Virus record (IMG/VR): IMGVR_UViG_3300042465_004839
Coordinates: 9,170-73,169 of that record
From: a virus
Length of the DNA stretch: 64,000 bases
Direction: 5' to 3' (one strand)
Part shown: in pieces, positions 11,501-37,187 of the stretch
How positions within the stretch are numbered: position 1 is the first letter of the stretch
How the letters are laid out: each line of letters starts with the position of its first letter
Notes under the pieces: model-generated
What the model was told of the DNA's origin: nothing
What the model saw: only the letters and a program-made list of their open reading frames with translations
The model's database searches: none
Position numbers and translations under genes: made by a program

Positions 11501-11710
11501 TTATTGTATAAAGTTTTCGTTAAAAAAATTCTCACAGTCCTCTTCTGTGTTTAATCCTCCCTCATCGTAAGTTCCCTGTGCGTATGAGTTTATTAAGCAT
11601 TGCTTCTCTAATATCAAGAATCTCTGGAACTCTGTGTTTAAGTCATTACCTATAAAGTATTGATTAGTTTTCATGTAGTCTATTAGCTGTGATACTGCTG
11701 TCTTTACCAT
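11501..11710 (-). CDS. 'KQTAVEWL'-type small phage protein
   Basis: MVKTAVSQL...EKQCLINSY, similar to 23526-23735. Confidence 0.65.
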   Translation of the reverse strand: MVKTAVSQLIDYMKTNQYFIGNDLNTEFQRFLILEKQCLINSYAQGTYDEGGLNTEEDCENFFNENFIQ

Positions 11711-12479: not shown

Positions 12480-12665
12480 TTAAAATAATTCTTTTAAAAC
12501 GCATTCATACACAAACTCTGAATTACAATTAAGTTCATCTAATTCGCCATCAGTTAATTCAACTCCATCTATTTCTGCATAAAAAATATAAGCATCAACG
12601 AAGTCGGGGTAATCGCTTGTATCAATATTTGCCAATTCAATATTTGTTATTTTATCTAATTCCAT
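12480..12665 (-). CDS. acidic hypothetical protein
   Basis: IDTSDYPDFVDAYI...ELTDGELDELN. Confidence 0.7.
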   Translation of the reverse strand: MELDKITNIELANIDTSDYPDFVDAYIFYAEIDGVELTDGELDELNCNSEFVYECVLKELF

Positions 12666-13000
12666 TACGACATATCTCCCTCAGCTTCTGGGTTAACAGT
12701 TATTTTATTTGCTACGTTCTTTTCGTACCATATTTTGTTTGCCTCTACTACGCTATCAAATTCTTTTTGAGGAATAATTCTTTTTAAGGCTTCCTCTCTT
12801 GTTGTTATTGGATGCGGAATGTCTTTTTCTAAAGGTGCTACTGCATTTACTAATTCCTTAGCTAAATTAGTAGCAGCAATGTACTTGTTAATTCCACCTA
12901 AACCACTTTGGCTATTTGCTAATAAGCATACTGGGCAGTAGTACTGGAACAAATATTCTCTGTACTCTTCTTGTGTGTTAAAGTCTTGTCTTGATTTCAT
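12665..13000 (-). CDS. hypothetical protein
   Basis: ATG start, coupled to next gene. Confidence 0.6.
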   Translation of the reverse strand: MKSRQDFNTQEEYREYLFQYYCPVCLLANSQSGLGGINKYIAATNLAKELVNAVAPLEKDIPHPITTREEALKRIIPQKEFDSVVEANKIWYEKNVANKITVNPEAEGDMS

Positions 13001-13027: not shown

Positions 13028-13101
13028 TGTCGGGAGCAAGGAATTGAACCTCATTTTCTACCTCTCGTAGGTAGTGTAATTGCCATTATACGACATCCCA
13101 A
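13028..13101 (-). tRNA. degenerate tRNA (apparent anticodon CGA, non-canonical loop)
   Basis: TTGGGA/TCCCGA acceptor, TAATGG D-loop, CTACC/GGTAG anticodon stem with TACGAGA loop (A at position 33), GGTTCAATTCC T-arm; short variable loop is atypical for Ser. Confidence 0.55.
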
Positions 13102-13322: not shown

Positions 13323-13688
13323 TTATCTACTTACTACTACTCCATTATGCATTAGCGTTACCTGACAAGGTACTTCCACGTTCTCTACTTGCTTGTGCCT
13401 CTTTCTTAACCTTTTGCAATACTGTTCGTAACTCCACTGGCAATCTTCTTTTTTATTGTAGGACTGCCACTTATAAATTAAACCTTTAGAACAATTATTA
13501 GTTAAGTCGTACACTATATCTCTGATATTAAAGTAGTAATGCTCAAAATATTTAACTATATCGCCTGATTCTTGTGCCATATTATAATCAAAACTAATCT
13601 TTTGCTTTTTTATAAATTCGTCAATATATCCTGTGCAGATACGCTCGTATTCAATGTTTAAAGTAGATACAATTTCTTTTCGTGTCAT
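13323..13688 (-). CDS. hypothetical protein
   Basis: 121 aa; preceded by TACTTTTG promoter and a 6-codon uORF. Confidence 0.65.
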   Translation of the reverse strand: MTRKEIVSTLNIEYERICTGYIDEFIKKQKISFDYNMAQESGDIVKYFEHYYFNIRDIVYDLTNNCSKGLIYKWQSYNKKEDCQWSYEQYCKRLRKRHKQVENVEVPCQVTLMHNGVVVSR

Positions 13689-14769: not shown

Positions 14770-15927
14770 TTAAAAAATGTGTGAAATTCGTGCAATTTGA
14801 CCATTTTCCTTACAATGCAAAAATGCTTCACAACATTTTGGTGCGTGTTGATATCCGTTTCTGTGATGCCAACTGTCTGTACCTGAAGGACTTCTTAGAC
14901 TTTCAATAGTTATACCTGCATAATCCTTGCTTGTCTTATGGTGGACGTGGTGTGTATAGATGTAACGATGTTTTGTTGCAGCCCACTCTCTACTAAACTC
15001 TACTGCCATTAATAGAGGCAAATCTTGTTGTTTCGCACCATCTCCATGAGTTGTGCCTATTAAATTTTTGTAATATTGAAAACCTTTTCTATGCGCTATT
15101 GAACAATCGAATGTTATGTTTTTACAGTCTTTAAAATATGTTTCAATTACCTGAGCAAGAAAAAATCCGTTAGTATAATCGTGATTACTTGGGTTAAATG
15201 TAAAGTGTACGTCTGCTATACTAATTAATATTTCTAATACTTCAATGTATAATTGTTTTGCAATTAAAAAGTTGCTGTGCCACATTCCATCAGTATCTTG
15301 TGGAGTTCCGCTTGTAGTAGTTCTATTCGGATTATCTATGTGGAGGATATCGTTACCGCCAATAAATAAAATTTTGTCTATATTAAAACTTGAAACCTTT
15401 TGTAATATACCTTTTACTCCATCTAAAACTCTTTGAACTGCTATTTGATTATTGTATGACTCTCCACTTTCAAAAGATGTACATAGTTTCCCAATATGTA
15501 TATCTGCAGGATCTAAAACTAATAAGTAAGAATCTTTGTTTTCTATTCTTTTTAATTTAGGGAATTTAGGAATATAAGCTTGAATATCTTTTATTAGTTC
15601 TGCTCTAAAATCTAATTCTAATAGTTCCTCTGGGGCTACAAAATTAGGATTCTTAATAAACAAACTTGCGGTTTTGTTTTTAAGCCACAAGTGTTTAACA
15701 TTTCCAAAGTCTACATCTAACCCTTCAGTTGCTTCGTAAATTCCTTCGTGTTTATCTAAAATTCTATTACGATTTCTTCTTACATAAGTTCTTAGTAAGT
15801 CTACTTGGTATTTATCATCTCCTAAAATCGATTTTGCTACCTGTTGGTCTGTAAATGATTCATTTTTTAATAAACACTCCTTAATTTTATTATCGTAAAT
15901 AGTCCATTGTGATGTTTTGTTTCCCAT
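14770..15927 (-). CDS. calcineurin-like metallophosphoesterase
   Basis: DIHIG, GNDILH, SNHD, THGD and HHVHH motifs. Confidence 0.85.
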   Translation of the reverse strand: MGNKTSQWTIYDNKIKECLLKNESFTDQQVAKSILGDDKYQVDLLRTYVRRNRNRILDKHEGIYEATEGLDVDFGNVKHLWLKNKTASLFIKNPNFVAPEELLELDFRAELIKDIQAYIPKFPKLKRIENKDSYLLVLDPADIHIGKLCTSFESGESYNNQIAVQRVLDGVKGILQKVSSFNIDKILFIGGNDILHIDNPNRTTTSGTPQDTDGMWHSNFLIAKQLYIEVLEILISIADVHFTFNPSNHDYTNGFFLAQVIETYFKDCKNITFDCSIAHRKGFQYYKNLIGTTHGDGAKQQDLPLLMAVEFSREWAATKHRYIYTHHVHHKTSKDYAGITIESLRSPSGTDSWHHRNGYQHAPKCCEAFLHCKENGQIARISHIF

Positions 15928-15933
15928 ATATGT

Positions 15934-16128
15934 TTATTTAAACCCAAATAAATTTTTAATATTGTCTAATACATCATCTTCAAAAATATTAGATTTAGTA
16001 ATGTCTTCTACACTAATATAGTTTAGTCTGTCATTTACTTGTTTCTTGGCATCTTCTATATTATAAGCTCTAACCTTAGTACTCATCTTTCTACCGTAGA
16101 ATTCAAAACGTAGTATGTAATCTTTCAT
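15934..16128 (-). CDS. hypothetical protein
   Basis: ATG 4 nt after TACTTTTG (16140-16133). Confidence 0.7.
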   Translation of the reverse strand: MKDYILRFEFYGRKMSTKVRAYNIEDAKKQVNDRLNYISVEDITKSNIFEDDVLDNIKNLFGFK

Positions 16129-16279
16129 ATTGCAAAAGTAGTGATGTTTAGCTAAATAACTAATTAAATTAATTTAATCGAATTATATTCTTGGGTACTA
16201 TACCTTTGTTAGATAATATTTTAGCTAAAATTAATATTAAAAGAGTAAATAGCTAAAATGTTAGATTAAAAAAATATAA

Positions 16280-16420
16280 TTTGTTTTATTGAATGTAGTT
16301 ATTATATTTGCAGCGTACTAATTGGTATTATTGAAGTAGAGAGCAGTAATACCTATTAACTAGGATTAATTAAACAATTAATCAAGCCCTGAACAATTCT
16401 CTACTTGTTTGGGGCTTTTA
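16280..16420 (+). promoter_or_regulatory. Bacteroidota promoter plus structured leader/attenuator of the replication operon
   Basis: TTTG (16280) -19 nt- TATATTTG (16303); two hairpins then a terminator (16384-16420). Confidence 0.7.
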
Positions 16421-16426
16421 TTTTAT

Positions 16427-16888
16427 ATGAAAAACTTTGATAGTTTTAAAAACGCAATTTCGGTATACCTAAAGTTTAACGATAGATATTGCCTTCAATA
16501 TTTAGAGCCAATAGGTCATAAAAAAATTTCTATTATTTTATCTTTAATTAGAAAAGACAATGAAATTACACAGGAACAATATTATACAGTATGTTCAATG
16601 TATAGTCATTTCTATAGTAATTATTTTAAAATAAAAAATTTAAATAGTTTAGAACCAAGAAAAATTGCACAGCAGTTTATTAGTAGAAAAAAAATAAGAC
16701 ATTTTATTTTTAAAAGAGATGGTTTTAAGTGCTTAAAGTGTGGTTCTGAAAATAAATTACAGATTGACCATATATTACCAATAGCAAAAAAAGGAGAAAA
16801 TAAAATATCAAATTTACAAACACTTTGTATTTTTTGTAACAGTAAAAAAAGAGATAATTATAAAGACTATAGAAATGGCGGAAAATAA
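16427..16888 (+). CDS. HNH endonuclease
   Basis: RDGFKCLKCG...IDHILP...N..SNLQTLCIFCNSKK. Confidence 0.9.
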   Translation: MKNFDSFKNAISVYLKFNDRYCLQYLEPIGHKKISIILSLIRKDNEITQEQYYTVCSMYSHFYSNYFKIKNLNSLEPRKIAQQFISRKKIRHFIFKRDGFKCLKCGSENKLQIDHILPIAKKGENKISNLQTLCIFCNSKKRDNYKDYRNGGK

Positions 16889-17510
16889 AAAATCATTTAT
16901 TGCATATTCTGATTGGCATGGAATGTTCCACGCACTTCCAGATGAAGTTGCAGGCAAATTAATTAAACATATATTCTCTTATGTAAATGACGAGAATCCT
17001 TCAAGCGAAGATTTTATTATAAATGCTTTATTTGAGCAGATAAAAGCAACTCTTAAAAGGGATTTAATTAAATGGGATAAAGAGCGTATTCAAAGAAGTG
17101 ACGCAGGTAAAAAAAGTGCTGAATTAAGGTCAATCAAATTCAACGAGCGTTCAACGGAAGTTAACGAGCTTCAACGAAAAGCAACTGTAAGTGTAAGTGA
17201 TAGTGTAAATGAAAATGAAATAAATAAGGATATAGATTTTAAAAAACCAAGTTTAGAAAATTGCATTGAAATTTTTAAAACTAAAACTGCTTTTAATTGG
17301 ACAGAAAATTATGCATTAAAATCAGCAAACACATTTTATTATTTTTATGAATCTAAAAATTGGATGGTTGGTAAAAATAAAATGAAAAGTTTAAATGGTG
17401 CTATTGGTGGTTGGATTTCAAGGGATCAAAACCCTGAATTATCTACAACTAAATCTAAAGAACAAATAATTAACGAAAAAAAAGCATATTATAAAAATTT
17501 AGGATTCTAA
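16875..17510 (+). CDS. phage replication initiator-like protein (DUF6291-type N-terminus)
   Basis: KKSFIAYSDW...AGKLIKHIFSY; C-terminal FYYFYESKNWMVGKNKMK; directly upstream of helicase. Confidence 0.7.
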   Translation: MAENKKSFIAYSDWHGMFHALPDEVAGKLIKHIFSYVNDENPSSEDFIINALFEQIKATLKRDLIKWDKERIQRSDAGKKSAELRSIKFNERSTEVNELQRKATVSVSDSVNENEINKDIDFKKPSLENCIEIFKTKTAFNWTENYALKSANTFYYFYESKNWMVGKNKMKSLNGAIGGWISRDQNPELSTTKSKEQIINEKKAYYKNLGF

Positions 17511-17512
17511 TT

Positions 17513-18520
17513 ATGAACGTAAAAATAATTGATTATTACAAAAAAAGTGATGAATTTGAAAACTATCATACAACTGGCGGTGCAGGAATGAACTACGCAG
17601 GTTTTGAATGTTTAAACGGAGTGTTTCAGTTTGCTCAAGATGGTATTACAGATATAACAGGAACACCGGGAAGTGGTAAAACTGAATTTGGATTAGAACT
17701 TTTGTTTTATCAGTCAGAGGTTTTTGGGTTACGACACTTGATTTATGCTCCTGACATCGGTAGTTACAACGAAATAAGAAGAAAACTACTTGTAAAGTAC
17801 TACAGAAGAAGCTTTAGAGGATATGCGAACTCAATAACAAAAACAGAGTTAGTCACTTGTATAGCTTTTATTGATACACACTTTCTTATAGCTGCAAAGT
17901 CTGACATAAAAAAACCTTTAACACCAATGGACTTATGGAACTTTACCGTTGATTACAAGGATAATAGTGGTGGTATTGACACTTGCTTTATTGATAGTTG
18001 GAAAAACTTATACCACGACTATACAGGCAGAGAGGATCAGTACTTAGACTATATTTTATGTTATAGAAACGAGTTAGCAGAAGCAACAAAAAAGCATTTT
18101 ATGACTATATCCCATCCTAAATCTACTGAGTTTGACAAAGATACCAAGAAGCCAAGAATACCAACAGCGCACGATATAAGTGGTGGAGCTTCTTGGTTTA
18201 GAAATGGTAAAACCATTGTAACTATTGACTGGGCAGATAGAGAAAATGGAAACATTGATGCATACTTTTGGAAGGTAAAGCCTGACACAATTGGTAGAGC
18301 AAAGTTAATATTTCAAGAGCTTGAGTTTGATTGGAAGAAGTCAAGGTATAGGGAAACGATTGAGGGGCGAATATGTTACGCAGGACAAGGCAAGGAGTTA
18401 AGAGAAAAAGGTGAATTTATCGGATTTGGTAGCGTAGATAAAAGCATTAGGGCAGGAGAACAGATAGCAACTCAAGCAAGTTTTGATTTACCATCACAAG
18501 ATAATGATATCCCATTTTAA
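17513..18520 (+). CDS. DnaB/RecA-fold replicative helicase
   Basis: Walker A GTPGSGKT, Walker B CFIDSW, ISHP, DISGGASW; acidic DIPF tail. Confidence 0.8.
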   Translation: MNVKIIDYYKKSDEFENYHTTGGAGMNYAGFECLNGVFQFAQDGITDITGTPGSGKTEFGLELLFYQSEVFGLRHLIYAPDIGSYNEIRRKLLVKYYRRSFRGYANSITKTELVTCIAFIDTHFLIAAKSDIKKPLTPMDLWNFTVDYKDNSGGIDTCFIDSWKNLYHDYTGREDQYLDYILCYRNELAEATKKHFMTISHPKSTEFDKDTKKPRIPTAHDISGGASWFRNGKTIVTIDWADRENGNIDAYFWKVKPDTIGRAKLIFQELEFDWKKSRYRETIEGRICYAGQGKELREKGEFIGFGSVDKSIRAGEQIATQASFDLPSQDNDIPF

Positions 18521-18925: not shown

Positions 18926-19121
18926 AAACAAACAAAAACATGGAAAAAAAAGAATTATTATTAGAAATTGAGTGTAAGTATGGGTTCTATACCTGCGCAA
19001 ACAAAGTTGAATCATTTTGTGAAACTTGTAATGAAGGAGATAATTATGAAGACAATGGGGAATAAAATGAATTTTTTTGATGGTTTATTTTATTATGTGG
19101 ACAAATTTATTATATTTGCAT

Positions 19122-19577
19122 ATGGAAAAAATATTAGAACAATATGATAACAAATATTCAGTTACAACTGAAGGAAAAGTTTTTAGTTTAAAAGGAAACA
19201 AAAAAGAATTATTAGGGAAAATATGTAAATCAGGTTATAGACAAATTCTTATTAACCACAAAGGAATTAGAAAGTATTTTTTAGTTCATAGATTAATATT
19301 ATCATCTTTTGTTCTTAATCCTTTTAATAAAAGAACAGTTAATCATAAAGATGGAAATAAATTAAATAATAATGTATCTAATTTAGAATGGAATACAGAT
19401 TCTGAAAATCAAATTCACGCTATTGAAAAAAAACTTATTATACATAAAATTGATTACGAAATTGCTGAAAAAATAAGAAATGATGTAGGAAGTCATAGAG
19501 AATTAGCAATAAAATACAAATTAGGTAAAACACAAATTGGATATATTAAACAAAATAAAAGATGGAAAATAAAATAA
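19122..19577 (+). CDS. HNH homing endonuclease (NUMOD4/HNH_3-type)
   Basis: VHRLI...VNHKDGNKLNNNVSNLEW; ATG 3 nt after TATATTTG. Confidence 0.9.
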   Translation: MEKILEQYDNKYSVTTEGKVFSLKGNKKELLGKICKSGYRQILINHKGIRKYFLVHRLILSSFVLNPFNKRTVNHKDGNKLNNNVSNLEWNTDSENQIHAIEKKLIIHKIDYEIAEKIRNDVGSHRELAIKYKLGKTQIGYIKQNKRWKIK

Positions 19578-21310
19578 ATGTATTGTCTTTGTTCGATGGT
19601 TGTTCGTGCGGAAGACAAGCTCTTGAGAGAGCAGGAATAGAAGTAAATCAGTACTTTGCATCTGAAATTGATAAGTACGCTATTCAAGTTACAATGGCTA
19701 ACTATCCAGACACAATTCAGTTAGGTAGTGTAGTAAATGTTGATGGAAAGTCATTACCAAAGATAGAATTGCTACTTGGAGGATCCCCATGCACCAATTT
19801 TTCATTTGCAGGTAAACGTAAGGGTATGTCTACTAAAGATGAGCAAGAAATATTAACTTTAGAGCATTACTTACAGTTAAAAACTGAAGGATTTGAGTTT
19901 GAGGGTCAGTCTTACCTATTTTGGGAGTATATGAGGCTACTAAATGAGGTAAAACCTACATACTTTCTTCTTGAAAACGTAGAAATGGGTGAAAAATGGG
20001 AAAAAGTACTAAGTAAAGCCATTGGGTACAACGGAATTCATATAAATTCTGCATTAGTGTCAGCTCAGAACCGTAAAAGAATCTACTGGACAAATATTGG
20101 TATGCAACCTGCTGGATTATTTGGTGATTTAGAGTCTATTATTCAGCAACCTAAAGATAGGGGTATACTTTTAAAGGATATTTTACAAGATAATCCAAAT
20201 GCTAAGTACTATATTTCCTCAAAAATGGAGGAGCATTTAAACTCAAGAGATTCTGTTAAAATAAAAAATGGTGAAGATAAAAGTGGTACAATTACTACAA
20301 ATGGTGAGGGCAAACAAGGCAATAACTCTACATTTATTTGTCAAGAAGTTGATGAAAAGTATTTTTTAAGTGAAAGTCTAATAAGTAAGCTTCATGTATA
20401 CAACCAAAGACAGATTGATAACGGCAATGGGTTTATGGCTAAATTTAGAGATACAAATGTAGTTGAAAAGATGGACTGTATAAAAATTGGTGGTGGGATG
20501 AAGGATGACTTAATAGTTCACAACACAATGCCACGCTCATCAACTACAGGAAAGGGTGGTACTGGTCCGTTAAGTAGAAATGATGGTAAAACATACTGCT
20601 TAGACACAAAGAATACCAATGCATTAGAGATTGTATGTGGTCAGTTAGGCTACGATAAGCCATTTGAAGAAAACGATAAGGCTCAAGCACTACTACAAAG
20701 AGATTACAAGGGTATGAGTAACTACGGAATTAATGTAGTGGTAAATGCAAATGGGGCTAAAGAACAGGTAGTAGGTAGGAAAGCTCAAGAAGATGGAACT
20801 TACAAAAGAGAGTACGAGGTTTCAAATGATGAAAAGGCTAAAACATTGGAAACAAACAAACAAAAAAACAATGTTGTGATTAGAGAAATAAAACAAATAA
20901 GCCAAAACAACAAGTCAAATGGTGGCACTCAGCCTTACCAACAGGATAGAGTATACGATGTTGATGGCATAAGTCCTGCACTAACAAGTCAACTGCCTAA
21001 AGGAAGTTCTATGATTTATTTAAATGAAAATCAACAAAAAAAATTTAACCCAAACATAGATTCAGATAAAGCCAATACACTTACACTTGCTATAGGAAGA
21101 GCAGGTAGCAGTAGTGAGTATATGGACTCTGTTTCTAAAATAGCTAATATCACATCAAGAATTAGAAGACTTACCCCAGTAGAGTGTGAAAGATTACAGA
21201 CAGTTGCAGACAATTATACTGCACACGTTTCAGATTCTCAGAGGTACAAGATGCTTGGAAATGGTTGGACGATTTCAGTTATAGCCCACATATTTAGTTA
21301 CATAAAATAA
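19562..21310 (+). CDS. DNA (cytosine-5)-methyltransferase with expanded variable region
   Basis: SLFDG (I), GGSPC (IV), LENV (VI), QNRKRIY (VIII), RRLTPVECERLQ (IX), YKMLGNGW (X). Confidence 0.95.
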   Translation: MENKINVLSLFDGCSCGRQALERAGIEVNQYFASEIDKYAIQVTMANYPDTIQLGSVVNVDGKSLPKIELLLGGSPCTNFSFAGKRKGMSTKDEQEILTLEHYLQLKTEGFEFEGQSYLFWEYMRLLNEVKPTYFLLENVEMGEKWEKVLSKAIGYNGIHINSALVSAQNRKRIYWTNIGMQPAGLFGDLESIIQQPKDRGILLKDILQDNPNAKYYISSKMEEHLNSRDSVKIKNGEDKSGTITTNGEGKQGNNSTFICQEVDEKYFLSESLISKLHVYNQRQIDNGNGFMAKFRDTNVVEKMDCIKIGGGMKDDLIVHNTMPRSSTTGKGGTGPLSRNDGKTYCLDTKNTNALEIVCGQLGYDKPFEENDKAQALLQRDYKGMSNYGINVVVNANGAKEQVVGRKAQEDGTYKREYEVSNDEKAKTLETNKQKNNVVIREIKQISQNNKSNGGTQPYQQDRVYDVDGISPALTSQLPKGSSMIYLNENQQKKFNPNIDSDKANTLTLAIGRAGSSSEYMDSVSKIANITSRIRRLTPVECERLQTVADNYTAHVSDSQRYKMLGNGWTISVIAHIFSYIK

Positions 21311-22200: not shown

Positions 22201-22872
22201 ATGAATAAATACATCACATACTTCAGAGTAAGTACAAAAGAGCAAGGACAGAGTGGCTTAGGATTAGCTGCCCAAGAACAAATGGTTCTACCCATCACCA
22301 ACAACGGAATAGTAGTGGCATCATTTACAGAAGTAGAGTCAGGAAACAAGTCTAACCGTAAAGAGTTAGAAAAGGCTATCAATACCTGTAAACAACATAA
22401 CGCCATACTCCTCGTAGCAAAACTTGATAGACTATCTCGTAACGTACACTTCATTAGTACACTTATGGAAAGTAAAGTACAGTTCAAGTGTGCCGATGCC
22501 CCAGAGATGGACTCATTCACCGTACACATATTCTCAGCTCTCGCAGAAAGAGAACGTAAAATGATTTCCGACAGAACCAAAGGCGCACTACAAAGCATCA
22601 AAAGAATCATTGACAGAGATGGTGAGTACACCACTAAAGCAGGTAGAGTAATATCTACTCTCGGTAACGGTCTACTACAAAACAAAGAAACTGCCAAAAA
22701 ACAAATGGCGTACGTTGCATCCCACAGAGTATACCAAAAAAAGTCTAACATAGGTCTTGCCCTCGTACAGTCACTATCACAAAATGGTGTTCCCAAGAAA
22801 GATATTAAACAAAAACTTGCCGATAACGGTATTAACGTGTCACTACAAACAATATATAAATATGCAAAATAA
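22201..22872 (+). CDS. small serine recombinase (resolvase/invertase family)
   Basis: YFRVST catalytic Ser, EVESG, LLVAKLDRLSR, ER..ISDRTK, C-terminal HTH; own TAACTTTG promoter at 22171. Confidence 0.92.
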   Translation: MNKYITYFRVSTKEQGQSGLGLAAQEQMVLPITNNGIVVASFTEVESGNKSNRKELEKAINTCKQHNAILLVAKLDRLSRNVHFISTLMESKVQFKCADAPEMDSFTVHIFSALAERERKMISDRTKGALQSIKRIIDRDGEYTTKAGRVISTLGNGLLQNKETAKKQMAYVASHRVYQKKSNIGLALVQSLSQNGVPKKDIKQKLADNGINVSLQTIYKYAK

Positions 22873-23053: not shown

Positions 23054-23536
23054 ATGAGCAAACAAACAGCAAAATATATAATACCGCACATGACATTATC
23101 CATTGATGGTAGTTTATATAACCACAAAACAAAAAAATTTAAAAAGTGGACAAAAGATACTAATGGTTATATGAAAACACAAATTTGGGTTGGCGGAAAA
23201 CCAAAAAACGTACATCAACATAGATTACTTGCTCAAGAATTTATTAATAACTCAAAAAATAAAAAGCAAGTAAATCATATTAATGGTATTAAGCATGATA
23301 ATAGAATAGAAAATCTTGAATGGGTTACTCAATCTGAAAATGGGTTACATTCATTTGCTAATGGATTGCAAAAAGTTACAAAACCTTGTAAAAAAGTAAT
23401 TGATACTAGTAATAATAAAATTTATGATAGTGTAACAGAAGCAGCTAAACATAATGGAATATCAAGAAGTCATTTATCTAATATGCTTACAGGTAAATTT
23501 AATAATAAAACAACACTTAAATTATATGGAAAATAA
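23054..23536 (+). CDS. HNH homing endonuclease with C-terminal NUMOD1-like HTH
   Basis: HRLLAQEFI...VNHINGIKHDNRIENLEW; YDSVTEAAKHNGIS. Confidence 0.9.
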   Translation: MSKQTAKYIIPHMTLSIDGSLYNHKTKKFKKWTKDTNGYMKTQIWVGGKPKNVHQHRLLAQEFINNSKNKKQVNHINGIKHDNRIENLEWVTQSENGLHSFANGLQKVTKPCKKVIDTSNNKIYDSVTEAAKHNGISRSHLSNMLTGKFNNKTTLKLYGK

Positions 23537-24442: not shown

Positions 24443-24475
24443 AAAATCCTTCAATTAATTTTGAGGGATTTTTTT
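24443..24475 (+). terminator. intrinsic terminator
   Basis: AAAATCCTTCAA ... TTGAGGGATTTT plus T-run. Confidence 0.7.
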
Positions 24476-24491: not shown

Positions 24492-24890
24492 TATATTTGC
24501 CCTGTTATAATGCGTGCGGCATAATAAAGATATTGAAAAATTCTCGTACACTTAGAGAAAATTTCAACTAAGCCTGATAGCCGCACGCTGTTGGGTTTTT
24601 TTATGCCCAAAAATTAAGGTAATAATGGTCGGCACGAAAAAATGACAGCATTATTATTTAAAGCGATACTGTGAGGTATGTATAAATCGCAATCCCAGCT
24701 ATAAAAGTAAAGGGAATACATTGGAGAATGGACACTTCAAAAGTTGTACTTAAATTTGCAAACCCCATTTGTTTGTGATGCACCAAAGAGGGTTGCGGCT
24801 CGGGAAAATAGTCGTAATTTGAATAGTGAGTAGCCAAAGAGTTTAACACCTCTAAGGCTACCGCTATGCACATGGTAAGGATTGCTCTCA
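24492..24890 (+). ncRNA. promoter-driven structured non-coding element (attenuator-like leader plus hairpin string)
   Basis: TATATTTG at 24492; terminator 24570-24602; at least six further hairpins to ~24861; no convincing ORF. Confidence 0.55.
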
Positions 24891-24971
24891 AAAAAATAGT
24901 TAGTTATAGTATAGTTTAAGTTAAAAAAAATTAATTAGAATCCTTTTAAACAATACTTTACCTTTGAACTT

Positions 24972-25154
24972 ATGGAAAACATAGAAGAATTAAAAAGAAC
25001 AGCATTAGAAGTAGCTTTAAGAAGCAGAGAGTTTACTCAATTAGCACTGGAAACAAAAGATGCAATAGAAGAAGCAGACTCATTAGAAACTCTAAAAACT
25101 TGGTTTAAAGGTACGGTAAACGAATTAGGATTAGACAAATATTTTGGATTTTAG
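24972..25154 (+). CDS. hypothetical protein
   Basis: ATG 5 nt after TACCTTTG. Confidence 0.65.
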   Translation: MENIEELKRTALEVALRSREFTQLALETKDAIEEADSLETLKTWFKGTVNELGLDKYFGF

Positions 25155-27341: not shown

Positions 27342-30300
27342 ATGCCAGATAAAATAAAAGAAGCATTTACTGCTATAAACGACAAAGAATTATTTTTAGA
27401 CGAACAAGACTTTAGGGATAATGTAATGAAAGACCCAAAAGGAACATTTGAAGCATTAAATAATTATGGTAAAACTAAAGGATTTTTTTTAGATTATGGA
27501 GATTTTGAAAGTGCTTTAGATTTAAAAAAAAAAGAGCCTACAGCACCATCTATACCAAATTTTTCAACAAGTTTGGGAGGGGATATGCAACCTTTGCCAA
27601 GTGGTGCAAAAAATATTTCCCAATCACCATTACAATCGAATATAAAAACAGAGTTTCCGACATACATTGACCCTACAAAACCTTTAAAAACAAAAGAGGT
27701 TATAGATGTAAATGCGGAGAAGAAACCTTTTGATAGTGAAGTAATAAGAAAAGAAAGAGAGGTAAGATTAGGTACACATAGAGAAAAGATAATGTCTTCT
27801 ATTGTTAAAGAACCTGACTTATATACTAAAAAAGCATCTAAGTCACATTATGGAACTATAGCAGTACCAGAAATGCCTAACATTGATAACATATCAAAGG
27901 CAATAGATTACTATGCAACAAAATTAGTTAAACAAGGTGAATACCTTAGCCCACTTGATAAACAATATTTAGTAAATAGTGTTGCTCAACAAGTAAAACA
28001 AAGGAAAAATATTGCAGATGCAGCAGCAAATGCAAGTCTTAGAGCAATAAACAGAAAAGAATTACCTGAATACGCTTACACAGGCGTAACTAATGCTAAA
28101 GGAGAAGTGTTAGTAAAAGGACTTTTTCAAGAAGCAAACGAAAAAATAATCAACGAACAAAATAAGGAAGTTGACAATTACAAAATAAATTCTGAAAATT
28201 TAACAAAAACAGTAGCAACAGAAGTTGCCCCAGAAGTAAATGCTTTAAAACTTGATGTTAAAGCCAAAGCAGAAATATTAAATCAAGAGGTAGAAACTGC
28301 TTTTAATAAATCATTTAACGAAAAAGACAAAGCTATGTATGACCAATACAATCAATTGGTTCAAAGTGGGCAAATGACTCCTGATGTAGCAAATAATGCT
28401 TTAAAAATAAAAAGAGAAGAATTACAAAAGCAGACACAAGCAGAGATAAGTGCTGCCTATGCTCCTAAGTTTGATGCATTAAATAAAGAATCTAACTTAA
28501 AATCAAAAGACATACAAAGTACATATAACAGAAACTACTTAGCAAAAGCAAACTTACTAAAAGAAACTACTAACAAAAAACTTCAAGAAATAGCCCAAAA
28601 AAATATGGTAAATATGCCTAAAGGGTATATGGAAAGATGGGCAAAGGATTTTCAAGAAAGTTTAGCTGAAATAGAAAAGAAAAACGTAAATCAAGCTTAT
28701 TTAGATGCTAAAAGAATGCCAGCAGAGGCAAGATTAGCAAAAGCAGTTTCTTTTGGGTTTGGTAATGTATTAGGCTCAATAGGAGGGGCTATGTCATTTG
28801 CAGGATTAGATGCAAGTGCAGTAAACGATGTAGTTATTAAAACTACAATGCAAAATGAACTTACAAGTAGTGCGTATTACCGAATTAAAGATGAAGAAGC
28901 AAAAGCAAATGGAACTCCACACGCTAATTTTGTAGAGAAACTTTCTGATCCTTCTTGGTGGTATGATAATATGGGAAGTACCGCACCATTTATGTTAGTA
29001 ACTATGCCAGTAGGTATAGCATCAGGTTATGGGGCAGGCTCTATAGCAAAATTATTAGGAGCGAGTAAAAGAGCAACAGCTATTGCAAGTGCAGTAGGTG
29101 GTGGTGCAGTAAGTTGGTATGGAGAAAACACATTAGAGGCAGGAAGTGCATTTAACGATGCTATTAATCAAGGGTACTCAGAAAACGATGCATCAGAAAT
29201 AGCAGCAAGAACATTTAGAAATAACATAATAACATTACCTCTAAGTGTATTCCAGCTAATGCCAGTATTTAGTAAATCATTTAAATTTACTAAAGCATTA
29301 CCGTTAGAAATAATTTCTGGAGGTGTTGAAGAAGTGTTTCAAGGTTGGTCACAAGCTGAAGCAAATGCAGCAGCAAATGGGTATGATGTAAGTTTATTTG
29401 AGTATGCTAAAACCCCACAAGCATTAGAGGAGGGAACTATTGGAGGTGCGATGCAAGCAGGTATGGCAATGTTTGCATTAAATGAAACTCCAAATATTGA
29501 CAAACAAATATCTGCATTAATGAGTTCTATAAGTGTAGGTGGCGAACAGTATGCAAGAGCAGTATTGGATGTAATGAACAAGAATCAAGCCATTACAGAT
29601 GCTGAATTTAAAGAAGCTAACCTACAAATAGACTACATCTTAAATGGTATTGAAAGTGTTCAAAACTTTAATGTAGACGACAATTTAAAGGCAGGATTAG
29701 TAGGTAAATTTGCTAAAATAGGCAGAGCAAAGGCATTAATTACAGATGATGAGAATGACTTGGCAAGTCAAGCTGCAAAAGAAATGATTGCAGAGCAAGA
29801 GAAGGATATAAAAGAAATTTTAAAAGGTAATACACCTTTATATTTAGTATTCCAAAAAGGGAATCCAATACCAACTTTAGCAAGTGAAGAGCAGTTTAAC
29901 ACAATACTAAAAGACCCAAAACTAAGAGAGGAATTTACATTACAAGCAATAAATGATGATGCATTGCAAAGTAAAATAGATGAAACATATAAAACAGGAG
30001 TAGTAACAGAAGAAGAAACAATAAATGCAGAACAAGAAATTATACCAGCAACTGAAACCCCTGCTGCACCACCTAGCGGTGTTAGTGGTGAGGTACAGGC
30101 ATCTGGTGATGTAGAAGCAAATATAGCCAACAGAAAAAGAAAAGATTTATTCCCTGACAAATCAAGATTTGCTAATGACGTAGGTCAAAGTGGAGAAAAC
30201 TCTCAAATATCATCATACAAAGAAGTAAATGGAATTGGATTATCAGAATATTCTAATCCTAAAAATGGTTTAGTAGATGTTATAATGACAGGAACTTCTG

Positions 30301-33300
30301 ATAATGATTATGTTGGATACATAAGAATATACGAAAACGGCAAGCCAACAAATAGATGGACATCTAAAATGTCAAACAAATCTGGCAATAAAGGCAACTT
30401 TAAAACCATGATAACAGAAGCTCAAAAATTACTTCCAGAGGGTCACGAATATACTGAAACTACAAATATATCTTTAGATGGTTTAAGGGTTTATGCTAAC
30501 AGTTTAAGCAGAGATTATGAAATAGCTACTGATGAAGATGGAAAACCTATAACAAATAATGTTGAATTAAATAATGCAACATTAGCAGCACTACAAGGCG
30601 CAAAAAATCAACAAGAAACTGAAGATTTGTTTGACACTAAACGAGGAATTACAAGAGATGAATTTAATCAAATAAAAGAGCAAGTAAATAAATTATTGCC
30701 AAATACAAGATTATTATTTGACACGGCAAATGGAATTGTAACAATACAATTACCTGTACTAAAATCAACTAAAAAACAATTAACAACTAACGAACAACAA
30801 AAAGCATCTAAAAAAGTTGCTGAAGTAACTCCTAAAGAAGGCGACAGCGTTATTATAAAATCACGTTTTGGTCGTGATGAAAAGTTGGTATTTAATAAAG
30901 GAGAGTGGAGAGTACAATTTGGTAAAGATGAATTTAGTGATATTGGTAAGGCTGCTCAACAAGAAGCTCAAGATGCATTTAATAAAAAGAATGAACCTGT
31001 TGCTGAGGTTAAGGAACAAGCACCTGTAGTTAAGGAACAAGCTCCTAATAGGGCAGAAGGAAATGTTAAAGTAAAATCTTTTAAACAAGGAGATGGCGGA
31101 ACAAAAGGAGTTTTTGAAGGAGAAGATGGTAAACTTTATAAATCTATTGAGCCACAAGAATCAGTTCAAGACAAAGAAGGAAACTTTAAGCGTCAAACCA
31201 TTAAAGATACACTAACAGACGAGCATAAAATATTGTCTGAACTTCAAGATAACCCTCATGTACCTAAAGTAGGTAAAATTGTAGATACTACGGAAGGCAA
31301 AGCTTTTGAAATAGAAAAATTAGATGAAGTTGATACTTTTACTAAAGATGAGTATAGGGAAATTCAAAAAATACTAAATGACTTAAACGACAAAGGTTAT
31401 CATGTAGGAGATAGAGTTACTGTTATGAAACGCCCAAAAACAGGCGAACTTGTTATTATTGATTTTTCTGCTGGGTACAAAGGAAGTAGAATGTCAAGAG
31501 ATGCCGATGAATATATGGGTGACGTAGCAAAGAAACTAAGTAAATCTGATGCTATAAATATTAAATTAGAAGACTTGTCAGAAATAAATAGAGAACAAGC
31601 AGATGCTTTTTTTGACAAAGAATCAACTACTGAATACTACTTAACACAAAGACCTCCAAGCATAGGAACACACCCAACAGAAGGATTATTATCGGTTAAC
31701 GAAGCAGAATATAGAAACAGAAAAAATGTTTATATACTTAAATATGATAGAAAACTTACACCAAACGAAATAGCTAACTTTGAACTAACTCCTAAAGTAA
31801 CAAATAAAGAATTTTTAGGTCAAAAAATATTAGGTGTATATGGTAAAGTTCCATTTTATGTAACTAAAATAGATTACAAAAATGGAACTGTAAAAATGGC
31901 TGCGGAGGTAGTTGGAAAAGAAGTAGAAAAAGAAATTTCTTTTAGGGAGTTTAGTAAAAATATAGACGAAGGTAAATATAAAGTAGAAACACCCAAAGAA
32001 GAAAAACCTGTTAAGGAACAAAAAGAGCCTGTTAAGGAACAAACTGAAAAAGAAAAGGCTAAAGAAAAGGCTAAGGAAGAATTAAGAGCAAGAGCAGCAA
32101 AAGCTAAAGCTGAGGCTATTAGTGCTGCACAAAAAGTTCAACAAGCATTAGAGGCAACAGGAATAACTGTTGAAGTAGTTGATAGTGAGCAAGAGTTCCA
32201 AGATAAATTAGATGCTGAGGGTGTTAATAGAGCAAGTTCAGCAGGTAAAAGCGGTGTATTTATATCTAAGTCAGGTAAAATATTTATTAACGGTAGCAAG
32301 GTTGATGCTAACTGGGGTAGTGTAGATGTATGGCACGAAGGAACTCACCCTATTATTAACATAATAAGGAACACAAACCCTAAACTATACAATTCAATAA
32401 TAGATGGACTAAATAAATTAGTTACAAGTAATCCAGAGATTGCTGATGTTTTAAAGTGGGCGCAAAAAAATTATAAAGGCAAAAACACTTTAGAGGATGA
32501 AACTATAACTGAAACCATAGCAAGAATAGCAAATGGCAATATAGATATATCAAAGATACCTACATCATTAAGAGATAAGATAATAGATTTCATTAATGAG
32601 ATTGCTAAGTCATTAGGAATAAAACCTATGTTCAAAAGTTCTAATGTTGCAACATTTAAAAAGATAGCAGGCGAAATATCTGCTGCACTTAAAGAAGGTA
32701 AAGATATTAGTAGTATAGTAGGTGCAGAAAATGTTAAGAATTATGAGTCAAAAATAACAATAGAAGACTCAGAGTCTTATGTTAAAAAAGCAAATGAATC
32801 AGAAACATCAGAAGGTATTAATAATGAAAATATATCTATTAGCGATATAAGCGGTAACTCTAGAAAAGGCATTCAGTTTTCAAAAGGCAAGGAAAGAACC
32901 GAAGAGAAAGCTAAAGAAACAGTTGAAGATAAAATCAAGGCAGAAACAATAAAAGCAGTAAAAAAATCTATATTAGACTACAAAAGTTTAAAAGGTAAAA
33001 TATCAAGAACACTATTTTATGATAACACAAGGGTTGGTTCTTTAGAAATAAAAAACAGAATTACAGGATACACTCCACCTGTTATGGGTAAGGGTGGCTT
33101 CTTTTATTCTTATATGCCTAGTTCTTTAAAAAATAAAGCAGTATTAGCATTTACAAGTATTAACCAAGCCATACAAACCTTAAAGAGGCAAATGCTATAC
33201 CCTGATGGGTTACAGGCTATTGCTGCTCAAAATTTTCAAACTGCACATCTTGGGAATAAGTCTACCTTAGAAGCATTGTTTGGGAAAAGTGGTTCTGAAA

Positions 33301-36300
33301 ATTTAGGCATATTTCAAGACTCTGTAAAAGATGTAAAAAACAATCCGAATGGGGAAGCTGAGTTGCTAGAAACATTGAAAAAAGCAACAATAGATATTGC
33401 CAATCAAAAAGTGCAGTCAGGAGTTAATGAAGGCAAGCCAACGGCATCAGCAGAAGAGATAAAAAAAATAATAGAAAGAAATGGAGGAAATTTAGATGGT
33501 ATAAAATCACTTGATGATTATAGGGATAAAGTTTTGACATTTACAGGAGGTGACTCATTTGGAGCAAGAAATATATTATTTACTGAAGTACTTCAAGAAA
33601 AACCAACAAAAATAACTAAATCCACAAGGGAATCTCACCAAATAATACATTATAAGTATGGCATTCCTACCTTATCTGAAATAGCCGAAGGTAATAATCA
33701 AAGTGAACTAAATAATGCCGAAACAGGAGATGTTGTTAAATTTGTAAAGCCATACACAGACCCTGTTGTATACACTACTGACAAAAAAATATATAAACAA
33801 TACTCTGAAAATCCAACGCCTGAAATGGTTGAGAATGGCATTAAAATAAAGTTATTGCCTAAAGATGCTGCACACGAATCTTATGCTTTTGTTTTAAAAG
33901 GTGAAAACGTAGGTTTGTTAGACAACTACATTTCAGCCACTCAGTTATATGAAAAAAATGAAAAAATAGCCAACACCCCTAAAAAGCAAAGTTTTTATAA
34001 AGTGGGAAGGATGCCTGCAAATGCAGAGGCTGGAGTGTATCCAGAAAACCCCATTGCTCAGGGAAAGGCTCAATACTCACAAGGGAACAGAGATGCTGTT
34101 GCAAATAAGAATACAGAAAAAAATAATATTATAATAAAAGATAATAACATAGAGGGCAAACTTCTTAACAATCAAGAGTCACAAAAATTACAAAAAGAAA
34201 TTGAATCTAAATATAATGACTCAGGAATACAAAAATTTGGACAAGAAAATGAAGATATACGTCAGAATTTATATAACTATGATAACCCATTAGCAGAAAA
34301 AGATGTAAATGGGATTAATATAAGAATTGCAGAGGGATTATTAGAGGGAGATAAATATTCTGGAAACAGGAAAAAAACTTATTTGTTATATGCAGATGGT
34401 AAGATAGCAGGTAAATTCTATTCTGTAGCAGATGCAAAAAAAGTTGTAAGTTTTATTGAGCAAAACTTAATAAAACCAAAATCATTAGCACCAAGTAATC
34501 CTCAATACTCTCAAGGTAACAGAGATGCTGTTGCTAATGAAAACTTAATAAATGGATTCTATTCACCATTAGAGAAAACAATTAACGATTCTAAGCAAGA
34601 TAAGATGCCTGCTAAACAATGGATAGAAAAGTTTGCTAAAGGTGAAGAAGCTAAATGGACAGGACTAACTGATTGGTTAAGCTCTCAAACAGGCTCGGTA
34701 TCTAAAGCAGATATTCAGCAATACTTAAAGGACAATAGAATAGAAATTGAGGAAAAAGTTAAAGGAAGTTCTGATTGGATTAAAGAAGGTAAATCATATT
34801 TTTCACAAAATAAAAAATATGAAATAAGAGATTTAGGTGATAATGAATATACAGTAATTAAAGATGGCAGATATAATTTAGGTAGTCGTGATGGTCTTGA
34901 AAGGGCTAAAGAACTTGCATTTGAAGATGGATATTCAAATGAAGAAGATATAAATAATGACACTAACTTTGGCAACCGACCTGATTTACAATTAGAAGGA
35001 GAGAAAGAAAATTACAAAGAGATATTGGTGACGTTGCCAAATAAAGAAGCAATAAAAGAATCTGAAATTGAAGAAAAAAGACGAAAAGCTGGAATTATGG
35101 ATAATTTTAACTTTGAAACAATGGGTTATAATGATACTCGAAATGTTCCAAAGTTTGTATCATCTCACTTTGATGAACCCAACATACTCGTTCATTTAAG
35201 GATGAATACTCGTATAGATTCAAATGGTAATAAAGTATTGTTAATTGAAGAAGCACAAAGCGATTGGGGTCAAACAGGGAAAAAGAAAGGGTTTAAACCA
35301 ACTTTTGAAATTAGAAACGAAAAAGGTATGTTCAATGTTTATTCTTCTGTAAACAATATGAAAGAACCTGCATTTTCTTTTGATACAAAGGAAGATGCAA
35401 ATAAAATGCTTGAAACTTTAAATAAAACAAATGAAAGTAAAGTTCCAACTGCACCATTTGTAATGGACACAAATGCATGGGCTAAACTTGGTTTAAAGGT
35501 AGCATTAAAAGAAGCAGTTGCACAAGGAGTTGATAAGATTGCTTGGACTACTGGAGAGCAACAAAATGATAGGTATGATTTAAGCAAACAAGTTGATGAA
35601 ATCAATTACAGTAAAAATTCAGATGGAACTTATGATGTATCCGCCAACAAAAATGACAACCAAGTATTTGACAAGTCTTACATAAAAGAAAATGAATTAG
35701 AGGGAATAGTAGGCAAAGAAGTTGCTCAAAGAATAATAAACAATGAGGGTAAAGAACCGGTAAGGGGTAGTGGTAATTATAAAAAATCATTAAGTGGTGA
35801 TGGATTAAAAGTTGGCGGTAAAGGAATGAAAGGCTTTTACGGATCACCAACAGAAGGTAAATTAGGTATAGTAGGTGAGGTTGCTAAGAGTTTGTTTAAG
35901 CAAGAACCGAAAACGGTAAGTATAGAAGGAATATTAAGTTTTAATGTTTACGATAATAAAGATGGGAATTTGCAAGGTAATTTTGCCGACTTTAATTCTG
36001 CAAAAGAATTTGCAAAAAAAATAGATGGTAGTGTTCAAAAAACAAATATTTCAACTCAAAATTCAATAGACATAACACCAGAGTTAAAAGCACAAGTTGA
36101 AGAAGGTCTGCCTCAATTCTCGCAAGGGAGTAGAGATATACAATCTCTTGTAGATATAATTACAGAAACTCAAGAAAAAGGACAATTAGATGATAATGAA
36201 ATAGCAGAAACTTTAGAAGCTTCTTACTCTAAAGAAGAAATTCAAGAAGCATTTGATTATATCAATAACCCACCTATAAATGAGCCTACTGCAACAGAAA

Positions 36301-37140: not shown

Positions 37141-37187
37141 GCTCACCATGCCTCTCAACGATGCACACTTTGGTGGGCTTTTTTTTT
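37141..37187 (+). terminator. intrinsic terminator of the ferritin cassette (large structured loop)
   Basis: GCTCACCA...TGGTGGGC followed by T9. Confidence 0.7.

Follow-up and report, generated by a model that had tools for sequence, protein, structure and literature searches.

A predicted loop-to-loop helix between a 5' hairpin and a terminator-like hairpin in the putative leader of a phage replication operon

In the attenuation of the rep genes of pT181, pIP501, and pAMbeta1, as in the RNA I/RNA II pair of ColE1, the pairing partner is a separate counter-transcript made from the opposite strand. The CI RNA of phage P4 (seqA/seqB/seqC) and the c4 RNA of P1 and P7 are processed, trans-acting immunity factors, and termination there is Rho dependent or follows a block of translation. 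The leaders of T-even homing-endonuclease genes such as I-TevI and mobE have hairpins that occlude the ribosome-binding site and carry a late promoter within them. The L5-L13 contact of the cobalamin riboswitch is an intramolecular kissing loop joining a sensor hairpin to a regulatory hairpin, and the put RNA of HK022 consists of two hairpins directly after a phage promoter that act in cis on downstream terminators. A literature search, with supplementary files outside its scope, found no description of a phage leader in which the loop of a 5' hairpin pairs with a terminator loop; the nearest system was cATTpLS20, a zipper-type attenuator that heads a long operon on mobile elements, the conjugative plasmids of Bacillus. 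There, an upstream stem-loop is complementary to the terminator, antitermination is the default, and this function has been shown (PMC13401043). Here, we analyze positions 16303 to 16426 of a 64,000-nucleotide stretch of viral DNA (the window; bases 9170-73169 of the 73,169-base virus record IMGVR_UViG_3300042465_004839, which is rated complete). We read them as a promoter and the 5' leader, about 110 nt long, of a rightward early/replication operon, an attenuator tuned by a helix between two hairpin loops, and put the probability of this reading at roughly one half.

An earlier note on the window had listed a promoter, two hairpins, and a terminator at this site, and all four were located by sequence reading (Table 1). 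Upstream of the promoter box lies a TTTG that may serve as the -33 element, by what is presumably the spacing consensus of the Bacteroides promoter literature. In RNAfold, the three hairpins constituted the minimum-energy and the centroid structure alike at -33.4 kcal/mol, compared with -18.5 ± 3.1 kcal/mol for shuffled sequences (z, -4.82), and none of 200 shuffles was as good. The last hairpin has the form of an intrinsic terminator, being G+C rich and directly followed by a U-run. The promoter box and the U-run both lie on the + strand, and the G-U pairs of hairpin 1 and of the terminator-like hairpin would be A-C mismatches on the opposite strand. The start codon of the first gene (ATG at 16427) lies 10 nt beyond the terminator-like hairpin and thus outside it. 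Sequence reading found neither a second TAnnTTTG nor an ATG within 16311-16426; because there is no ATG, a leader peptide is ruled out. TAnnTTTG is the flavobacterial sigma-A -7 box and spans -12 to -5 (PMC9723704). Thus, transcription is predicted to start at about 16315, approximately 4 nt ahead of hairpin 1 when the stem of the latter is extended to 16319-16358.

The loops of the first and last hairpins can pair with each other. As the earlier note had stated, AAGTAGAGA (16334-16342) and TCTCTACTT (16398-16406) are a perfect 9-nt complement, and addition of a terminal G-U gives a helix of 10 pairs between segments designated X and X', with a duplex energy of -11.4 kcal/mol. Taken alone, the 9-mer AAGTAGAGA is weak evidence, since it occurs three times on the two strands of the window (0.78 expected) and 7 of 100 shuffles reached that number. 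Its extra match at 13382-13390 was set aside as within chance. For a scan of the window, terminator-like hairpins with stems of at least 7 pairs were collected, complements were sought in the loops of upstream hairpins, and expectations were derived from loop shuffles. On the + strand, 3 of 15 such hairpins had a hairpin-loop complement of at least 9 nt, one of which was later rejected, whereas 0.09 was expected; on the - strand, none of 17 did. The rejected candidate (24443-24472) had a self-complementary A+T string, AAATTAATT, as its complement, and the upstream copy of this string precedes the promoter box. Among 22 terminator-like hairpins on the + strand, 5 had TAnnTTTG within 140 nt upstream, and 3 of these (including the rejected one) had a 9-nt complement. 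For the other 17 and for all 25 on the - strand, the longest complement was at most 7 nt.

The scan also yielded a second leader of the same architecture at 24492-24602 (Table 1). Here, X' comprises a 5-nt loop and two stem pairs on each side of it, and the X:X' duplex is more stable than the terminator-like hairpin (-18.5 vs -13.7 kcal/mol). In the minimum-energy fold of this copy, X:X' pairs in place of the terminator. Further downstream, 24604-24971 contains a promoter-like TAAATTTG at 24752-24759 and a G+C-richer segment at 24764-24900 that folds at -37.4 kcal/mol (z, -2.2). This stretch, at the junction with the gene cluster starting at 24972, may hold another non-coding RNA.

Two direct relatives of the window leader were obtained, and the three together are designated family A. 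The first, L082, was found with a pattern that fixed only the foot and the loop of the terminator; it is 88% identical to the window leader and stands directly before a gene for a Lin1244_N initiator, unrelated to DUF6291, with a DnaB-like gene next. The second, L193, was found via an 18-nt linker, and its leader heads another, unrelated gene. The X/X' alleles are AAGTAGAGAG / TTCTCTACTT in the window, GAGTAGAGAA / TTCTCTACTT in L082, and AAGTAAGGCG / AGCCTTACTG in L193. In all three, X is matched by the terminator loop of its own leader over 8-10 pairs, with duplex energies of -11.4, -11.8, and -13.2 kcal/mol, respectively. In L193, positions 6, 7, and 9 are changed on both sides and still pair (G-C to A-U, A-U to G-C, and A-U to C-G), and both end positions are lost. 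In L082, X carries two A/G changes, both opposite U. The stem of hairpin 1 differs in L082/L193 by one pair changed from A-U to G-C and one from U-A to U-G. The stem of hairpin 2 is invariant across the three members and its loop differs; thus, covariation speaks neither for nor against this hairpin. Since the MAFFT alignment of the three leaders was out of register in the terminator, the pairs there were counted by script.

Other searches for close relatives added little sequence variation. Among 80 of the 97 matches in a metagenome scan with the 18-nt linker, there were two leaders, both identical to that of L082, and a metagenome pattern that left the terminator loop free gave no matches. 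When four runs were compared over 15800-17700, the contigs of runs X2 and X5 that cover the leader were identical to the window there and hence carry no covariation information. The HNH protein encoded behind the leader led to no relatives in genome or viral contig collections. Against the first 80 loci, the leader DNA gave blastn matches of only 13-15 nt and no nhmmer match. Its sole match among GenBank phages, a 44-nt A+T-rich one in Clostridium phages, was judged irrelevant.

A larger set of sister leaders came from L135 and four other loci, which carry the promoter of L082 almost base for base before a different leader of the same build (family B). A 20-mer of the middle hairpin matched 26 viral stretches, of which two were unrelated coding sequence and were excluded. 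The resulting 24 leaders, 17 of them distinct over 136 nt, have 8 different X. When the 17 distinct leaders were aligned, both-sided changes were seen at 5 of the 10 pairs of the loop-loop helix and one-sided changes at none; pairing is kept in 97.1% of cells, and U-A, A-U, C-G, and G-C all occur at one of the pairs. For the whole three-helix structure, none of 500 shuffles reached the covariation score, and pairing fell to 30-50% of cells when the partner was slid by 1-3 columns. RNAalifold, applied to 13 leaders without a given structure, returned the loop-loop helix as its predicted consensus. The earlier note had proposed covariation of the two loops as the check on their pairing. In both families the pairing is kept by compensatory changes, and we consider it very probably real.

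When a covariance model of family B was run on the window, the leader was its best match (28.7 bits; E value, 0.006-0.02), at full length and with 10 of 10 pairs standard. Reverse strands of true members score 29-32 bits, so we take this match as a sign of the same architecture and not as evidence of common descent, and it was discarded as proof of homology between families A and B. The model also found additional leaders at other sites of contigs already known to carry one, at L193 2777-2886 (-) and L176 10041-10141 (-), with 48 and 38.9 bits, respectively; such leaders are carried by several transcription units per phage. Between L082 (1580-1628) and L135, L128, and L130 (approximately 719-767), the promoter regions of 45-49 nt are 94-100% identical. 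The leaders and genes that follow them are entirely unlike one another. The boundary between promoter and leader looks like a recombination joint between phage modules.

Leaders of this build are not confined to the two families. In a scan of all fetched loci, hairpins with a stem of at least 7 pairs, a U-run, and an interior of 4-45 nt were collected, and an upstream hairpin loop complementary to the interior was then sought; shuffling of the interiors gave the expected values. Of 96 distinct terminators on the gene strand, 17 had a loop complement of at least 8 Watson-Crick pairs (1.48 expected), compared with 3 of 184 with a complement of at least 8 nt on the opposite strand (2.93 expected). 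Compensation was seen again in a close pair of loci, with GGTCTCAC / GTGAGACC in L101 and CGTCTCAC / GTGAGACG in L106. Among cultured phages, tooticki6-1 and sniff9-1 have the leader before a small gene that precedes DUF6291 and primase genes, and phage 11b has it before gene 62/63. Its position is about 12625-12740 in tooticki6-1 (MN812240) and about 33620-33725 in phage 11b (AJ842011). The version in Cellulophaga phage phi19:3 is looser, as no clean hairpin presents X there. The genes ahead of the leader in tooticki6-1 end at a plain terminator (12565-12586); the promoter and the leader come after it, and the leader has a terminator of its own (12680-12732). Judged from these sequences, the window leader belongs to a widespread, uncatalogued class in Flavobacteriia-type phages, uncultured freshwater and marine ones as well as cultured ones.

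The same data bear on whether the repeats act as DNA, in the form of operator half-sites, a cruciform, or an origin element before the replication genes. Hairpin 2 is a perfect, invariant A+T palindrome, and the region adjoins divergent promoters with other palindromes (TTTAGCTAAA), as such an element might. However, the stems keep G-U pairs, which are mismatched in DNA and on the other strand, and only the transcribed strand is enriched in loop complements; this strand specificity contradicts a role as DNA. In addition, each arm of the long-range repeat lies exactly in a hairpin loop, and the compensatory changes exchange bases without restraint, something not to be expected of a site bound by a protein. 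A DNA element is thus very improbable.

With a complement of at least 7 nt as the threshold, the scan gave 31 candidates. In 21 of these, TAnnTTTG lies at most 45 nt upstream of hairpin 1, and the box ends between 3 nt inside and 14 nt before the first base of that hairpin. An open reading frame (ORF) of at least 40 amino acids (aa) follows in 29, with the start codon 8-69 nt after the terminator-like hairpin (at most 47 nt in 28 of the 29). These positions, together with a predicted transcription start at the foot of hairpin 1, would also suit a leader without useful termination, namely, a compact module of the 5' untranslated region in which a 5'-terminal hairpin is fastened to a second one. 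Such a module would shield the 5' end of the mRNA and leave the A/U-rich start region unstructured in a host without Shine-Dalgarno sequences. Translation in Flavobacterium is reported to be governed by mRNA structure and not by Shine-Dalgarno sequences (PMC6847099), which is in line with such a module. We nevertheless consider it unlikely, since the second hairpin of the candidates has the canonical form of a terminator, with a G+C-rich foot and a U-run (features that were also selection criteria), and no gene follows the second copy in the window.

The position of the terminator-like hairpin is that of a promoter-proximal attenuator. It lies between the promoter box and the first gene, and no promoter follows it. 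Because the leader sits in a divergent intergenic region, the hairpin cannot end an upstream operon, and because the mere 10 nt between it and the ATG contain no promoter box, transcription toward the right must cross it. The order of elements in tooticki6-1, with a separate terminator for the preceding genes, is in keeping with an attenuator. The earlier note had placed the leader before an operon of HNH, initiator, and helicase genes; this agrees with its location, in which the one plausible promoter lies ahead of it and the HNH/DUF6291/helicase-like operon begins behind it. Since every transcript of the operon must pass a promoter-proximal terminator, the leader would act as an attenuator; from its position, and with terminator activity predicted, we hold this part of the reading to be somewhat on the likely side.

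How the loop-loop helix would tune such an attenuator can be outlined from the order of synthesis. X would be displayed first and could capture X' the moment it emerges, ahead of the synthesis of the terminator's 3' arm. X' consists of the 8-nt loop and 2 nt of the 3' arm, so the full X:X' helix and the fully closed terminator cannot coexist. Pairing would then delay or weaken termination, giving read-through by default and termination when X is unavailable. We lean tentatively toward this direction, at less than even odds, because X' overlaps the terminator stem in family A and in the second copy, because X precedes X' in synthesis and is exposed in a loop, and because pLS20 offers a precedent. 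The degree of exclusion differs among leaders: X' enters the 3' arm in the window leader, and the minimum-energy fold replaces the terminator in the second copy, whereas X' of family B is in a large loop.

Several observations weigh against an attenuator tuned in this way. Hairpin 1 leaves X unmasked, and the leader has neither an obvious off-switch for the pairing nor a second structure that would exclude it. In family B and most other alleles, X' occupies a large loop of 12-27 nt, flanked by unpaired linkers, which fits a closed terminator, so that pairing could equally aid termination or be neutral. The pairwise diversity of X and X' (0.28 and 0.23) does not exceed that of the unpaired linkers (0.27-0.43), so there is no sign of selection for private codes, and a hypervariable code under diversifying selection was discarded as an explanation. 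Behind the second copy, about 370 nt (24604-24971) contain no ORF, and a gene-free stretch would fit a free-standing small RNA better than an attenuator. Finally, the loci had been fetched with replication proteins, so the sample of downstream genes is biased toward replication genes.

A small RNA would be the product if the terminated leader itself were the active form, a stable RNA of about 100 nt. It would use X or X' to act in trans on leaders being transcribed from other copies of the genome, for copy-number control or immunity, much as the P4 CI RNA, the P1/P7 c4 RNA, or antisense attenuation in plasmids does. A promoter and a terminator about 100 nt apart would yield a small RNA by construction, the second copy stands alone, and codes differ from leader to leader (two within the window and 8 X among the 17 family B leaders). 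The leader also heads replication genes, the usual target of copy-number control. On the other hand, X and X' are on one molecule, so cis pairing should outcompete trans pairing, and their variability, at the level of the linkers, gives a trans-acting code no support. Extra copies do not exceed chance in the window, where the X of the leader has only the one extra match mentioned above and GCGTGCGGC, the X of the second copy, has none. We therefore regard a trans-acting product as quite unlikely.

A broader version of the loop-loop attenuator can be imagined, in which the loops form an RNA address system for transcription control without a sequence-specific protein: a private code of 8-10 nt for each early unit would tie the 5' hairpin to its own nascent terminator. 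Possibly, the tie brings the hairpin, or a shape-recognizing factor on the kissing complex, to RNA polymerase at the terminator, as a nut-like handle for antitermination. Alternatively, free leader RNA might act in trans by titrating the code; read-through toward the replication genes would then sense the genome copy number or a co-infecting relative. Such a system is speculative, and we would not expect it to hold.

The genes behind the leaders bear on what is being controlled. The first downstream gene was tabulated for 20 leader loci, and it was of a replication initiator or organizer type in 9 of this replication-biased sample. DUF6291 accounted for four, Lin1244_N for three, and Phage_rep_org_N and Phg_2220_C for one each; KilA-N, a T5orf172-type nuclease, and a protein matching QSregVF_b/DnaJ were found once each, and eight had no Pfam match. 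The earlier note had tied the leader to DUF6291-type genes. This did not hold, because family A heads a Lin1244-type initiator gene in L082 and an unrelated gene in L193. Conversely, L005-L007, the closest loci by DUF6291 sequence and synteny, have no such leader but a 54-aa ORF in its place.

The first gene in the window encodes an HNH endonuclease, and the leader might instead belong to this gene as a nuclease-specific device that holds a risky homing enzyme low, rather than controlling the replication operon as such. The HNH ORF begins 10 nt past the hairpin; the NUMOD4 endonuclease gene gp032 of tooticki6-1 stands behind a weaker copy with a complement of 7 nt (11608 / 11641-11678); and the leader of L010 precedes the nuclease-like gene (T5orf172/MUG113) counted above. 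However, family A stands before non-nuclease genes in L082 (the Lin1244_N initiator) and L193, and of the 20 first downstream genes only 1 is nuclease-like, compared with 9 of replication types, 2 of other families, and 8 without a Pfam match. The two other HNH_3 genes of the window (19077-19577 and 23054-23536) have no leader before them. A nuclease-specific role is therefore rather unlikely. The HNH gene is absent behind the same leader in L082 and L193, and related lake-phage contigs (runs X2 and X3) have a different sequence right before 16875 that ends in a G-rich arm and a U-run. From these differences and the leaderless HNH_3 genes, the HNH gene is probably an insertion behind a pre-existing leader, although a unit made up of leader and nuclease gene is conceivable.

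Table 1. Positions of the leader elements, the genes behind them, and the second leader in the window
Feature	Position	Strand	Description
Candidate -33 element TTTG	16280-16283	+	Sequence reading; 19 nt before the -7 box
Sigma-A -7 box	16303-16310	+	TATATTTG (TAnnTTTG); sequence reading
Hairpin 1	16324-16353	+	Arms GGTATTATTG/CAGTAATACC; 10 pairs including one G-U; 10-nt loop AAGTAGAGAG
X, 5' partner of the loop-loop helix	16334-16343	+	Loop of hairpin 1, AAGTAGAGAG
Hairpin 2	16364-16383	+	Arms GATTAATT/AATTAATC; A+T-only stem of 8 pairs; loop AAAC; perfect A+T palindrome
Terminator-like hairpin	16384-16417	+	13 pairs (5 G-C, 2 G-U); 8-nt loop TTCTCTAC; tail TTATTTTATA; -17.1 kcal/mol
X', 3' partner of the loop-loop helix	16397-16406	+	TTCTCTACTT; whole apical loop and 2 nt of the 3' arm
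U-rich tail	16418-16426	+	TTATTTTAT; extends to the start codon
HNH endonuclease gene	16427-16888	+	153 aa; Pfam HNH, E value 3.5e-10; PHROG HNH families; first gene after the leader
Gene for DUF6291 protein, primosomal or replication-organizer-like	16875-17510	+	Pfam DUF6291, E value 7.7e-20; weak primosomal match to phrog_6451
Gene for helicase-like P-loop protein	17513-18520	+	phrog_239 primase/helicase, E value 1.2e-6; 31% identity to the L082 protein
Second leader, same architecture	24492-24602	+	Box TATATTTG at 24492-24499; U-run at 24596-24602
X of the second leader	24512-24520	+	GCGTGCGGC
X' of the second leader	24580-24588	+	GCCGCACGC; inside the terminator-like hairpin 24571-24597

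The window has a G+C content of about 32% and a Bacteroidota-type promoter box. Among cultured phages, those of Flavobacterium, Cellulophaga, and Olleya have the nearest relatives of its DUF6291 protein. The DNA data sets that carry the sequence are lake-water metagenomes, and no RNA data set was listed as carrying it. The source is taken to be a phage of Flavobacterium-type bacteria. To the right of the leader, the HNH, DUF6291, and helicase-like genes are followed by a further HNH_3/NUMOD4 gene and a C5 methylase gene (19562-21310); the L082 homologue of the helicase-like protein has a weak match to DnaB_C. Three HNH-type endonuclease genes lie within 7 kb of this early region (16427-16888, 19077-19577, and 23054-23536), and a serine recombinase is encoded at 22201-22872. 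Farther away are a phage-encoded tRNA-Ser (anticodon cga) at 13029-13101 (-) and an ORF of 3079 aa at 27342-36581 (+).

To the left, a 64-aa gene and a homologue of a DNA-repair exonuclease are divergently transcribed. The 64-aa gene has a TACTTTTG box (- strand, 16128-16141; + strand, 16134-16141) that ends 5 nt before its ATG, and a leaderless mRNA is therefore predicted; the counterpart of this gene in L005-L007 has TATATTTG 21 nt before its own ATG. The divergent intergenic region contains the palindrome TTTAGCTAAA twice and TAGCTAAA as a third copy (16147-16156, 16220-16229, and 16250-16257). These palindromes look like operator sites for a repressor of both divergent promoters.

The earlier note had not recognized a named Rfam family, and indeed neither the window leader nor any of 16 leader-bearing loci matched one at threshold. 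With Rfam 15, nine leader-bearing loci gave no matches at an E value of up to 1, and seven others gave one sub-threshold match. In the whole window, the only match at gathering score was the abiF RNA at 37142-37178 (+), with 39.9 bits against 37, a terminator-like hairpin 35 nt after a TATTTTTG box. The best match of the leader itself was the trpB motif (RF04312), at 27.1 bits in the window and 36.2 bits in L082 against a gathering score of 59. By its description in PMC11109978, this motif is a riboswitch candidate of Firmicutes and Fusobacteria whose antiterminator lies in the right shoulder of P1. It resembles the leader in having a hairpin and then an intrinsic terminator in the 5' untranslated region; it differs in having this antiterminator and not a loop-loop pairing. 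Membership was ruled out by score and taxon.

Phage gene control in Bacteroidota is almost unexplored, and these hosts have their own promoter type and no translation led by Shine-Dalgarno sequences. A short, recognizable leader backed by covariation at the heads of early/replication units would therefore offer a handle on temporal control in these phages. Being about 110 nt long with a swappable code of 8-10 nt, it could serve as a compact orthogonal regulatory part for Bacteroidota. An entry in RNA family libraries would stop such intergenic regions from being annotated as empty.

Compared with the systems outlined at the beginning, the leader shares features with several of them. With pT181, pIP501, pAMbeta1, and ColE1, it shares loop-loop recognition with private codes and a terminator in the leader of replication genes; in contrast, both partners are on one transcript here, and no antisense promoter was identified. 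The P4 CI and P1/P7 c4 RNAs likewise have complementary segments in one phage leader, codes that differ between related phages, and premature termination, whereas the window leader matches no Rfam family at threshold. The leaders of T-even endonucleases are also structured, sometimes with an upstream terminator, before a free-standing endonuclease gene, and the first gene in the window is an HNH gene; here, however, the ATG lies 10 nt outside the hairpin, 16311-16426 holds no promoter box, and genes other than nuclease genes are also headed. Unlike the cobalamin riboswitch, the leader has no room for a ligand-binding domain. HK022 put differs in that it does not pair with a terminator and its hairpins are conserved in sequence.

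The likeness to cATTpLS20 is the closest. In that attenuator, too, a weak or small upstream stem-loop and a central stem-loop are followed by an intrinsic terminator just before the first gene, and the upstream element is complementary to the terminator (PMC13401043). The differences are nevertheless considerable. The pairing partners here are two apical loops, in a kissing or pseudoknot contact, and unzipping in the style of cATTpLS20 is not indicated, because neither sequence reading nor the RNAfold structure gave a complementarity by which 16344-16363 and 16384-16396 could lengthen the stem of hairpin 2. At about 110 nt, the leader is shorter than the 456 nt of cATTpLS20, and no conAn antitermination genes follow it. 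It comes from a Bacteroidota-type phage rather than from plasmids of Firmicutes, and its function is a predicted one. In general, the window leader would count among the leader/attenuator RNAs already known to pair over a long range with their terminators; the loop-to-loop version would be the new part and would extend the known ways for an upstream segment to reach a terminator.

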